Under the pieces are notes generated by a model, which was not told the DNA's origin, did no database searches, and saw only the letters and a list, made by a program, of their open reading frames with translations. A DNA stretch of 64,000 nucleotides from NCBI RefSeq assembly GCF_046105845.1, contig NZ_CP151004.1; one strand, 5' to 3'. How positions within the stretch are numbered: position 1 is the stretch's first letter; every line of letters begins with the position of its first letter. This document shows positions 14,024-22,409 of this stretch, one piece after another. Both the position numbers and the translations under genes were made by a program. This stretch comes from Escherichia coli. GTDB lineage: Bacteria > Pseudomonadota > Gammaproteobacteria > Enterobacterales > Enterobacteriaceae.

Positions 14024-14866
<843 letters not shown>

Positions 14867-14882
14867 TTCCAGGGATTTATAA

Positions 14883-15641
14883 ATGAAACAAACACAACGT
14901 CACAACGGTATTATCGAACTGGTTAAACAGCAAGGTTATGTCAGTACCGAGGAACTGGTGGAGCACTTCTCCGTCAGCCCGCAGACTATTCGCCGCGACC
15001 TCAACGAACTGGCAGAGCAAAACCTGATCCTGCGCCATCATGGCGGCGCGGCGCTGCCTTCCAGTTCGGTTAACACGCCATGGCACGATCGTAAAGCCAC
15101 CCAGACCGAAGAAAAAGAGCGCATCGCCCGCAAAGTGGCGGAGCAAATTCCTAATGGCTCAACGCTGTTTATCGATATCGGCACCACGCCGGAAGCGGTG
15201 GCGCACGCGCTGCTTAATCACAGCAATTTGCGCATTGTCACCAACAATCTCAACGTCGCTAACACGTTGATGGTAAAAGAAGATTTTCGCATTATTCTCG
15301 CCGGTGGCGAATTACGTAGCCGCGATGGTGGGATCATAGGCGAAGCGACGCTCGATTTTATCTCCCAGTTCCGCCTTGATTTCGGCATTCTGGGGATTAG
15401 TGGCATCGATAGCGACGGCTCGCTGCTGGAGTTCGATTACCACGAAGTTCGCACCAAACGCGCCATTATTGAGAACTCGCGCCACGTTATGCTGGTTGTC
15501 GATCACTCGAAATTTGGCCGTAACGCGATGGTCAATATGGGCAGTATCAGCATGGTAGATGCCGTCTACACCGACGCCCCGCCGCCAGTAAGCGTGATGC
15601 AGGTGCTGACGGACCACCATATTCAACTGGAGCTGTGCTGA
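14883..15641 (+). CDS. glpR: DeoR-family glycerol-3-phosphate regulon repressor GlpR
   Basis: 252-aa ORF MKQTQRHNGIIELVKQQGYVSTEELVEHFSVSPQTIRRDLNELA (DeoR HTH). Confidence 0.95.
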   Translation: MKQTQRHNGIIELVKQQGYVSTEELVEHFSVSPQTIRRDLNELAEQNLILRHHGGAALPSSSVNTPWHDRKATQTEEKERIARKVAEQIPNGSTLFIDIGTTPEAVAHALLNHSNLRIVTNNLNVANTLMVKEDFRIILAGGELRSRDGGIIGEATLDFISQFRLDFGILGISGIDSDGSLLEFDYHEVRTKRAIIENSRHVMLVVDHSKFGRNAMVNMGSISMVDAVYTDAPPPVSVMQVLTDHHIQLELC

Positions 15642-17221
15642 TCCTGCACGGCTTCCCACGTCAGACCAAAACGCGCCAGGTATTTGCGTAGCCGATCCGC
15701 GTCATTGACGCTGGCTTTGCCCTGGCGCGAAACATCAAAAAGCTGTCGTCCGGCAGCAGAAAGCGACTTTGCCTGGCGGCAGATAGCGATAACGTGTTCC
15801 AGTTGCATACGGTCGAAGAGGTCGATGTTTTCTGCCTCAGCGCCCAGCAACGCCGGAAGCGCGGAGGGGCGACTCTCCTGCCAGTTATAGCGCAGACGGT
15901 TTATCTCATCTTCCACCACTTCCCGAGTGATGCGTCCGCTAGTGGCAAAGGTTGCCATCCGCGTGACGCTGGCAGAAAGTTCGCGAAAGTTACCGCGCCA
16001 TGTTGCCTGGGGAGAGGTCGCAAAAGCCAGCCAGGCGCGCCGCGCTTCGGTGTTAAAACGCACGCTGTCGCCAGTGAGTGAGGCGTGGCGCTCCACTTCA
16101 TAATCCAGGTTCGGTTCAATATCTTCCTGGCGCTGGAGTAGACCCGGCAGGGTGAAGGTCCAGAGATTGATCCGCGCGTACAGATCTTCGCGGAATTTGC
16201 CTTCGGCAACCAGCTGACGCAAATCGCGCACCGTTCCGGCGATAAGCTGAAAGTCGCTACTCACCTGGCGATCGCTGCCAAACGGATAAAAGGTTTTCTC
16301 TTCAATGGCTTTCAGCAACATCGCCTGTTCGTCTGCGCCCAGTTCGCCAATCTCATCAAGAAACAACATGCCACCGTTGGCGCTGCGTAATAATCCTTCA
16401 CGAGATTCCCGCGCCCCGGTGAACGCGCCTTTCACATGACCAAACAGCGTCGACATGGCGGTATCGCCGCGCAGGGTGGCGCAGTTCACTTCCACAAACG
16501 CGCCGCTAAACTGATGCCGTGCCTGTTTTAATTCAAAGATGCGTCGCGCCAGAAATGACTTACCCGCACCGGTCGGGCCGTTAAGCAGGATCGGTGCGCG
16601 GGATTTGATCGCCACTTTTTCGATCTGCTCAATCATGCGGTTGAAGTGGGGGTTACGTGTGGCAATGCCGGATTTGAGGAAGTCGAGGGTTTGCTGGCGT
16701 TCCTCGGCAAAGCGGCTGGCGATGGCGTTATAACGGCTTAAATCGAGATCGATAATCGTCACTTCACCTGCGCCGCGCGGTTGTTCTTTTTTGCGCGGTG
16801 GTGAAGATTGTATCAGCCGGGCGGGCAGGTAACGCGCTTCTGCCAGCAGAAACCAGCAAATCTGCGCGACGTGGGTACCGGTGGTGATGTGAATTAAATA
16901 GTCTTCTTTTTCTGGCTGGAACGCGTAACCACGGGCGAAATCATGCAGGCAGGCGTAAACCTCTTCGAAATCCCACGGGTTATGCAGTTCTATCTCAACG
17001 CCCACCACTTCTGTTTCTGGCGAAACGCTGGCGATATCGCGTTTAAGCGTTTCGAATAGCGAGCGCGAGCGGGCGTCGTGCAATAATTCCAGCCGATCGA
17101 TAACTAACGATTCTTGCTGGCATAGACAGAGTGTCGGACGCCATTTTGACCAGCGCTGACTGCCGCGCCCGGCATAATCCAGCACCGTTCCGACAAAACC
17201 AAAAGCCACTGTTTTACGCAT
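15623..17221 (-). CDS. rtcR: sigma54-dependent transcriptional activator RtcR
   Basis: 532-aa ORF MRKTVAFGFVGTVLDYAGRGSQRWSKWRPT...; AAA+ sigma54-activation domain (GPTGAGKS, GAFTGA); its 3' end overlaps the glpR 3' end by 19 bp (convergent). Confidence 0.94.
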   Translation of the reverse strand: MRKTVAFGFVGTVLDYAGRGSQRWSKWRPTLCLCQQESLVIDRLELLHDARSRSLFETLKRDIASVSPETEVVGVEIELHNPWDFEEVYACLHDFARGYAFQPEKEDYLIHITTGTHVAQICWFLLAEARYLPARLIQSSPPRKKEQPRGAGEVTIIDLDLSRYNAIASRFAEERQQTLDFLKSGIATRNPHFNRMIEQIEKVAIKSRAPILLNGPTGAGKSFLARRIFELKQARHQFSGAFVEVNCATLRGDTAMSTLFGHVKGAFTGARESREGLLRSANGGMLFLDEIGELGADEQAMLLKAIEEKTFYPFGSDRQVSSDFQLIAGTVRDLRQLVAEGKFREDLYARINLWTFTLPGLLQRQEDIEPNLDYEVERHASLTGDSVRFNTEARRAWLAFATSPQATWRGNFRELSASVTRMATFATSGRITREVVEDEINRLRYNWQESRPSALPALLGAEAENIDLFDRMQLEHVIAICRQAKSLSAAGRQLFDVSRQGKASVNDADRLRKYLARFGLTWEAVQDQHSSS

Positions 17222-17354
17222 CTTAGATATCCTTATAAAAGACGATATTTCATTATCGGTAAATTGGCTTTGCGGGAAATCTCCGTTTACGGACGTAAAA
17301 ATTTAATCTATTAAAAACAATGAATTAAAAAATTAAGCTGCTTAATTAATTTTC

Positions 17355-17370
17355 TGGCACGACGGTTGCA
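17355..17370 (+). promoter_or_regulatory. sigma54 (RpoN) -24/-12 promoter of rtcBA
   Basis: TGGCAC-gacgg-TTGCA, a perfect match to the sigma54 consensus TGGCAC-N5-TTGCA, about 40 bp upstream of the rtcB ATG and downstream of divergent rtcR. Confidence 0.85.
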
Positions 17371-17408
17371 ATTATCAGGACAGCAAACAACGAAAAGAGA
17401 AAAACAAA

Positions 17409-18635
17409 ATGAATTACGAATTACTGACCACTGAAAATGCCCCGGTAAAAATGTGGACCAAAGGCGTGCCGGTAGAGGCCGATGCGCGTCAGCAACTTAT
17501 TAATACGGCGAAGATGCCGTTTATTTTCAAACATATTGCGGTAATGCCGGATGTACACCTGGGTAAAGGTTCCACCATTGGTAGCGTGATCCCAACCAAA
17601 GGGGCGATTATTCCGGCGGCGGTGGGCGTGGATATCGGTTGTGGAATGAACGCGCTGCGTACCGCGTTAACGGCGGCAGACCTGCCGGAAAACCTGGCGG
17701 AACTGCGTCAGGCGATTGAAACAGCCGTGCCGCACGGGCGTACTACCGGACGTTGTAAACGTGATAAAGGCGCATGGGAAAATCCGCCTGTTAGCGTCGA
17801 TGCGAAATGGGCTGAGCTGGAAGCCGGTTATCAGTGGTTAACGCAAAAATATCCGCGTTTCCTTAACACTAACAACTATAAACACCTGGGAACGCTGGGA
17901 ACGGGTAACCACTTTATTGAAATCTGCCTTGATGAGTCGGACCAGGTGTGGATTATGCTGCACTCCGGTTCACGCGGAATCGGTAACGCCATCGGGACTT
18001 ACTTTATCGATCTGGCGCAAAAAGAGATGCAGGACCAGCTTGAAACCTTGCCGTCGCGTGATCTGGCGTACTTTATGGAAGGTACGGAATACTTTGATGA
18101 TTACCTAAGAGCCGTGGCCTGGGCGCAGCTTTTCGCCAGCCTTAACCGCGATGCGATGATGGAAAACGTGGTAACGGCGTTGCAGAGCATTACGCAGAAA
18201 ACGGTCAGACAGCCACAAACGCTGGCGATGGAAGAGATCAACTGTCACCACAACTATGTGCAAAAAGAACAGCACTTTGGTGAAGAGATCTACGTGACGC
18301 GTAAAGGCGCGGTGTCTGCGCGTGCTGGTCAATATGGAATTATTCCAGGGTCGATGGGGGCGAAGAGCTTTATCGTCCGTGGGCTGGGAAATGAAGAGTC
18401 GTTCTGTTCGTGCAGCCACGGTGCCGGGCGGGTAATGAGCCGTACCAAAGCGAAAAAACTGTTCAGCGTGGAAGATCAAATTCGTGCCACCGCGCATGTG
18501 GAATGCCGTAAAGATGCCGAAGTGATCGACGAAATCCCGATGGCGTATAAAGATATTGATGCGGTGATGGCTGCACAAAGCGATCTGGTGGAAGTTATCT
18601 ATACCCTGCGTCAGGTGGTGTGCGTAAAAGGATAA
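17409..18635 (+). CDS. rtcB: RNA-splicing ligase RtcB
   Basis: 408-aa ORF MNYELLTTENAPVKMWTKGVPVEADARQQLINTAKMPFIFKHIAVMPDVHLGKGSTIG. Confidence 0.95.
   Translation: MNYELLTTENAPVKMWTKGVPVEADARQQLINTAKMPFIFKHIAVMPDVHLGKGSTIGSVIPTKGAIIPAAVGVDIGCGMNALRTALTAADLPENLAELRQAIETAVPHGRTTGRCKRDKGAWENPPVSVDAKWAELEAGYQWLTQKYPRFLNTNNYKHLGTLGTGNHFIEICLDESDQVWIMLHSGSRGIGNAIGTYFIDLAQKEMQDQLETLPSRDLAYFMEGTEYFDDYLRAVAWAQLFASLNRDAMMENVVTALQSITQKTVRQPQTLAMEEINCHHNYVQKEQHFGEEIYVTRKGAVSARAGQYGIIPGSMGAKSFIVRGLGNEESFCSCSHGAGRVMSRTKAKKLFSVEDQIRATAHVECRKDAEVIDEIPMAYKDIDAVMAAQSDLVEVIYTLRQVVCVKG

Positions 18636-19655
<1,020 letters not shown>

Positions 19656-19697: not shown

Positions 19698-22409
<2,712 letters not shown>

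Follow-up and report, generated by a model that had tools for sequence, protein, structure and literature searches.

The convergent genes glpR and rtcR meet tail to tail in the 64,000-nucleotide stretch of Escherichia coli DNA analysed here (hereafter the window), in a region that reads glpD / glpEGR / rtcR / rtcBA / malT. The glpR coding sequence occupies positions 14883-15641 of the + strand and encodes 252 amino acids up to a TGA stop codon at 15639-15641, in both the open reading frame (ORF) list and the RefSeq annotation; rtcR occupies 15623-17221 of the − strand and encodes 532 amino acids, and its TGA stop codon appears as TCA on the + strand at 15623-15625. GlpR, encoded by the last gene of glpEGR, is the repressor of the glycerol-3-phosphate regulon, and RtcR is the sigma-54-dependent activator of rtcBA. 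GlpR matches the NCBIfam equivalog model PRK10906 from end to end (residues 1-252 of 252; 553 bits against a cut-off of 331) and contains the Pfam domains HTH_DeoR (residues 6-61) and DeoRC (74-231), and RtcR matches NF038308 (RNA_repair_RtcR) over residues 1-527 of 532 (849 bits against a cut-off of 650) and contains the CARF-like RtcR domain (2-185) and Sigma54_activat (187-354). Both are genuine protein-coding genes, and their identities are secure. At the other end of the rtc locus, which spans 15623-19655, rtcA ends at 19655 and malT at 19698, leaving 42 bp between them that contain an 8-bp hairpin.

The stretch shared by glpR and rtcR runs from 15623 to 15641 and is exactly 19 bp long, by the ORF listing as well as by direct reading of the sequence, just as the initial annotation had stated. 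The genes lie on opposite strands and each stop codon falls within the coding sequence of the other, which makes them a convergent overlapping pair by definition. On the glpR side, the 19 bp comprise the last base of Ile247, the codons Gln248-Leu-Glu-Leu-Cys252 and the stop codon; on the rtcR side, they comprise one base of Asp527, the codons Gln528-His-Ser-Ser-Ser532 and the stop codon. The rtcR stop codon is thus made up of the wobble base of glpR Ile247 (ATT) and the CA of Gln248 (CAA). Frame arithmetic on the ORF coordinates shows that glpR and rtcR have their third codon positions in common (15626, 15629, 15632, 15635 and 15638), which is the least constraining antisense phase, and the substitutions CAA>CAG and GAG>GAA found in relatives are synonymous in both frames.

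The same overlap is present far beyond the window. In the RefSeq annotation of MG1655, rtcR (3558268..3559866, + strand) and glpR (3559848..3560605, − strand) share an identical 19 bp, which settles the comparison with K-12 coordinates that the initial annotation had proposed as a check, and the PGAP/RefSeq annotations give the same overlap in E. coli 7/2 (the closest genome, with 99.2% identity over 15300-15950), in an O16:H48 K-12-like strain and in the divergent strains A33 and AHB2. Of 5426 complete E. coli genomes, 5421 match a 66-nt probe that spans the junction. A test against chance is hardly applicable to such a feature, as stop codons are deterministic, and conservation is the relevant test. 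The overlap is already known, since the K-12 reference annotation records it and its class has been well described; in the literature searched, no published discussion of it, and no functional link between glpR and rtcR, was found.

How the junction varies between lineages was followed in one genome per species carrying RtcR, by tblastn and subsequent reading of the frames. The overlap is 19 bp long in Escherichia species, E. albertii and Klebsiella oxytoca, 35 bp in Intestinirhabdus alba and 4 bp in Superficieibacter electus, in which RtcR ends in ...KEMAN; an overlap of 139 bp in the last species was rejected, because the tblastn alignment had run through the stop codon and reading of the frame gave 4 bp. 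In Salmonella carrying the common 527-aa RtcR, the overlap is also 4 bp, and both stop codons are TAA within a shared TTAA, whereas with the 536-aa type of RtcR it is 38 bp, the Ile codon being ATA and a small indel shifting the frame of the tail. In the Salmonella locus with the 4-bp overlap, a Ro60/TROVE (rsr-like) gene separates rtcR from rtcB (locus L033, 1258-2811), which the E. coli window lacks, and in the Salmonella loci with the 536-aa type malT and rtcA overlap tail to tail as well, by 4 bp (locus L034, 573-576; also locus L035). The non-enteric rtcR genes of Pseudomonas, Iodobacter, Verrucomicrobia and Desulfobacterota have no glpR neighbour.

The two protein ends differ in how strongly they are conserved. 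GlpR is a protein of 252 amino acids ending in (Q/H)LELC across the Enterobacterales, including taxa in which rtcR does not adjoin it (Rouxiella, Shimwellia and an Enterobacter ludwigii-type genome). Across 78 homologues, conservation of RtcR extends no further than the motif RLRKYLARFGLxWxx[LVI], whose last residue is Val526 in E. coli, and beyond it both sequence and length vary. Because the GlpR end is conserved and the RtcR tail is variable, the shared bases evolve under the constraint of GlpR. The GlpR C-terminus (...QLELC) is the ancestral end, and the RtcR tail takes what the antisense strand offers. With coinciding wobble positions and an unconstrained RtcR tail, the overlap costs almost nothing.

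Enteric genomes without rtc genes have a different arrangement. In Shimwellia blattae and in the Enterobacter ludwigii-type contig, glpR faces malT over a spacer of 80-89 bp (locus L037, 3760-3839, and locus L038, 3760-3848, respectively); the Shimwellia spacer contains a canonical terminator, in which a run of seven T residues comes after a 12-bp stem, and the Enterobacter ludwigii-type spacer contains two G+C-rich hairpins and no T-run. The simplest reading of these arrangements is that the rtcR-rtcBA cassette abuts glpR without a spacer and that this arrangement predates the splits between Escherichia, Salmonella and Klebsiella. With the cassette directly abutting it, glpR would have lost any intergenic terminator.

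The cassette is incomplete or missing in some E. coli genomes. rtcB is present in 4857 of the 5426 complete genomes, as against 5421 for the junction, which puts the share of strains with an rtc deletion at approximately 10%. Strain 1442 lacks the rtcR promoter together with the 5′ portion of rtcR; what is left is a 399-bp piece from the 3′ end of rtcR, joined to 420 bp from the 3′ end of rtcA (locus L041, 2524-3310), and both remnants are annotated as pseudogenes. Since the junction is retained where rtcB is gone, convergent transcription of rtcR is dispensable in many natural strains. In the genome titled E. coli SCPM-O-B-8794, the whole rtcR-rtcBA cassette is missing and malT faces glpR; all that remains of rtcR is approximately 100 nt at its 3′ end, which cover residues 497-532 and still overlap glpR by 19 bp (locus L031, 2844-3111). 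The malT-to-glpR stretch of this strain (locus L031, 1500-3200) is only about 90% identical to complete E. coli genomes.

No canonical terminator with a hairpin and a U-tract was found by a consensus scan near the junction on either strand. Over positions 14700-17500, the scan returned six weak sites, compared with 4.2 ± 2.1 in shuffled sequences, and none of them lies at the junction; the weak sites with stems of 5-7 bp at 15810-15824 (+ strand) and 15270-15250 (− strand) were rejected as terminators, their numbers lying within those of the shuffles. No Rfam family matched positions 14500-17600 at E ≤ 1. The tables of curated Term-seq 3′ ends from MG1655 contain none within 3559500-3560699 on either strand (Adams et al., 2021; PMC7815308), and the SMRT-Cappable-seq supplement contains no 3′ end and no interference data for glpR or rtcR.

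In MG1655, termination of the glpR transcript takes place inside rtcR. A Rho termination region classed as 'antisense rtcR' peaks at MG1655 position 3559514 on the minus strand, with a Rho score of 8.9 (p = 2.7e-27); reads upstream and downstream of it numbered 154 and 29 without bicyclomycin, and 153 and 256 with bicyclomycin (Adams et al., 2021; PMC7815308, supplementary file 2). Rho thus removes approximately 80% of the coverage when bicyclomycin is absent, and read-through downstream rises about ninefold when it is present. By way of the MG1655 annotation, the peak lies 334 nt past the glpR stop codon, inside rtcR, at approximately position 15975 of the window, and because rtcR has the same length in MG1655 and in the window, the transfer of coordinates involves no indel. 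The stretch of rtcR that is read in antisense accordingly extends on the + strand from 15642 to 15975, at the coarse resolution of a Rho score computed from 800-nt windows. Enrichment of C over G past either stop codon is mild; the C/G ratio of 1.2-1.47 from the glpR stop codon to +270, a proxy for a rut site, reaches only the 75th-90th percentile of the window background and is a weak indicator.

By way of bicyclomycin sensitivity in MG1655, these data establish that transcription of glpR reads antisense into rtcR, as the initial annotation had foreseen, and that Rho terminates it there efficiently. The further statement of the initial annotation that the overlap leaves no room for independent terminators holds insofar as there is no intergenic DNA and no canonical terminator at the junction, but Rho terminates inside the coding sequence of the neighbour and does so without intergenic space. 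The glpR gene of the MG1655 reference is a pseudogene with a 1-nt deletion at nucleotide 151 (locus L032, 3349-4106), whereas glpR of the window is intact. The untranslated 3′ part of the MG1655 gene could itself promote the loading of Rho, and because of the frameshift the position and efficiency of Rho termination may differ in glpR-intact strains such as that of the window.

In the glpR-sense RNA, a stem-loop at 15629-15655 (+ strand) spans the glpR stop codon. Its 10-bp stem pairs 15629-15638 with 15646-15655, and its loop, UGAUCCU, contains the stop codon. With a minimum free energy of −16.4 kcal/mol, it ranks among the most stable 0.16% of 31-nt windows across the 64 kb. Its counterpart on the − (rtcR) strand has C-A mismatches in place of two G-U pairs and a value of −11.5 kcal/mol. 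Directly after the hairpin, the + strand reads CACGUCAGACC and the − strand AGUUGAAUAUGG; neither is a U-tract, and the hairpin does not qualify as an intrinsic terminator. It occurs in most of the Escherichia sampled, and the MG1655 sequence is identical; it is weaker in the cryptic Escherichia clades and in some E. coli strains, gives way to another hairpin in K. oxytoca, and is absent from Intestinirhabdus and Superficieibacter. Among 10 Escherichia and Klebsiella sequences, a single compensatory change was found, with a covariation score no better than that of shuffled sequences (187 of 500 shuffles), and the idea of a conserved element was dropped because covariation did not exceed that of the shuffles. 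Rho-terminated mRNAs end just past stable stem-loops without U-tracts (Dar and Sorek, 2018; PMC6061677). The hairpin at the glpR stop codon fits this description and is proposed on that basis as a possible 3′ protective structure, at which 3′ exonucleases may halt.

Very probably, the overlap is an ordinary, old, tail-to-tail overlap of two genuine genes, produced by genome compaction and stop-codon drift and serving as no regulatory device. Misannotation accounts for many long overlaps (Pallejà et al., 2008; PMC2478687), and the true stop codons might leave a gap that the calling or annotation of the ORFs obscures. Such an artefact is hardly conceivable here: stop codons, unlike start codons, are unambiguous, those of glpR and rtcR were read directly and agree with RefSeq, the matches of both proteins to their family models extend to the end, and the overlap measures just 19 bp and recurs in thousands of genomes and several genera. 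Frameshifted RtcR proteins of 636 amino acids are rare, with 1 and 14 members in their clusters (P0002 and P0007, respectively) against 9811 and 1606 in the two main clusters of 532-aa proteins. In the 636-aa form, a frameshift near the rtcR 3′ end joins a 115-aa ORF antisense to glpR (15312-15659, − strand), giving an overlap of approximately 330 bp, and such variants are probably pseudogenes or assembly errors. A different role for the shared stretch would be that of a dedicated terminator within the coding sequence, possibly bidirectional, with the hairpin giving each gene a defined 3′ end. The position of the stem-loop exactly at the glpR stop codon, its rank among the most stable 31-nt windows of the 64 kb and its occurrence in most Escherichia are what such an element would display. 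It is nevertheless very unlikely to act in this way, because neither a U-tract on the + strand nor a T run on the − strand follows it and the terminator scan passed it over, because it is weaker on the rtcR strand (−11.5 kcal/mol), because Term-seq of MG1655 records no 3′ end at the identical site and coverage falls further downstream in a Rho-dependent manner, and because it is missing from Intestinirhabdus and Superficieibacter and lacks covariation.

The remaining alternative to ordinary overlap is that the two genes influence each other. In an excludon-like arrangement, polymerase collisions or RNA duplexes cleaved by RNase III would tune glpR and rtcR reciprocally, and Rho would set the reach of the antisense RNA. 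Transcripts of the glpR strand do extend over approximately 330 nt of rtcR, a reach greatly lengthened by inhibition of Rho (29 as against 256 downstream reads); the tail-to-tail arrangement is kept across genera; and convergent excludons are common in E. coli, 165 having been listed for MG1655 from 58 transcriptomes (PMC12288877). In addition, p19 capture in K-12 recovered a perfect sense/antisense RNase III duplex of approximately 22 bp in glpR, at 1.1-1.5 RPM (Huang et al., 2020; PMC7373196, Table S3). The captured sequence maps uniquely to positions 15174-15195 of the window, approximately 430-450 nt past the rtcR stop codon on the rtcR strand, and its abundance is near the 1-RPM floor of reporting. 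Some antisense RNA therefore crosses glpR, and read-through from rtcR or an internal promoter may be its source. In vivo, the glpR-to-rtcR direction of transcript overlap is documented, and the rtcR-to-glpR direction is suggested by this one low-abundance dsRNA only.

Reciprocal tuning of the pair is nonetheless very improbable. glpR/rtcR is not one of the 165 convergent excludons listed for MG1655, a weak negative given that glpR is annotated there as a pseudogene, and the supplements of a genome-wide study of collisions (PMC10349824) do not mention the pair either. The dsRNA signal lies close to the reporting floor, the junction persists in the approximately 10% of E. coli strains from which rtcB and the rtcR promoter are gone, overlap length and RtcR tail drift freely, and the literature searched offers no functional link between glpR and rtcR. 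GlpR and RtcR are low-abundance regulators, for which collisions of polymerases and RNA duplexes are expected to be rare and of little consequence. The initial annotation had anticipated transcriptional interference between glycerol-3-phosphate regulation and RNA repair; this is unsupported, in view of the absence of the pair from the excludon list, the drifting length of the overlap and the loss of the rtcR promoter in approximately 10% of strains. A small regulatory effect of sense/antisense pairing is possible. The Rtc system is induced when translation or RNA metabolism is disturbed, and in a more specific form of cross-talk the junction would operate as a Rho-gated antisense switch: weakening of Rho would lead to read-through from glpEGR over rtcR, and the synthesis of RtcR would be altered by collision or by RNase III. 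The approximately ninefold increase in read-through with bicyclomycin and the conservation of the arrangement make the switch compatible with the data, and it is judged highly improbable.

In the favoured explanation, that of an ordinary overlap, the rtcR-rtcBA cassette separates glpEGR from malT and directly adjoins glpR. GlpR stops at its ancestral, strongly conserved ...QLELC. The conserved core of RtcR reaches to approximately Val526, and the rtcR frame then continues through glpR antisense up to a stop codon, which in Escherichia is the TCA provided by the codons of Ile247 and Gln248. Such an overlap is nearly free of cost, and its length drifts by lineage to 4, 19, 35 or 38 bp. RNA polymerase leaving glpR proceeds antisense into rtcR and is released by Rho within a few hundred nucleotides, as bicyclomycin sensitivity shows in MG1655, and the hairpin at the glpR stop codon may be a halting point for 3′ exonucleases. 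Transcripts of rtcR probably end likewise, inside glpR.

Overlaps of this kind are well represented among prokaryotic genes. In E. coli, 75 of 663 overlapping gene pairs are convergent (Huvet and Stumpf, 2014; PMC4161906), and the convergent class makes up 7% of the well-characterised overlaps in prokaryotes and suffers least from errors of annotation (Pallejà et al., 2008; PMC2478687). glpR and rtcR resemble the convergent pairs described previously (Rogozin, 2002; Johnson and Chisholm, 2004; PMC2478687; PMC4161906) in that a short 3′ stretch is shared through movement of stop codons, the overlap is conserved in related species and the wobble positions face each other; no essential difference from these pairs is apparent, and glpR/rtcR shows the drift unusually clearly, with the same partners throughout. 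The bicyclomycin-sensitive drop in coverage antisense to a neighbouring gene is shared with other cases of antisense read-through terminated by Rho (PMC7815308), whereas the rut-like C-richness of Rho terminators is weak at glpR/rtcR, where the data moreover come from a strain with a frameshifted glpR. The stable stem-loop without a U-tract at the end of glpR likewise recalls those of Rho-terminated mRNAs (PMC6061677), but differs from them in that the MG1655 Term-seq tables show no steady-state 3′ end at the glpR hairpin. With convergent excludons such as mscL-arfA (PMC10070815) and those of the excludome (PMC12288877), the pair has in common that neighbouring transcripts necessarily overlap at their 3′ ends; it differs from them in standing outside the 165-pair list, in showing a single near-threshold RNase III duplex, and in that no reciprocal expression of glpR and rtcR is reported in the literature searched.

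By itself, the overlap matters little, and no sign of a special regulatory role was detected. It calls for caution in genetic work, because the last 19 bp are common to glpR and rtcR, and a C-terminal tag on RtcR or a clean deletion of rtcR can damage glpR, and vice versa. The pseudogene status of glpR in MG1655 also matters when transcript data from K-12 are carried over to the strain of the window. If Rho-gated cross-talk were true, it would constitute a new link between carbon regulation and RNA repair. The locus illustrates how stop codons drift within the constrained C-terminal codons of a neighbouring gene, with overlaps of 4, 19, 35 and 38 bp depending on the genus, and how a gene that loses its intergenic terminator to an abutting cassette can rely on Rho.
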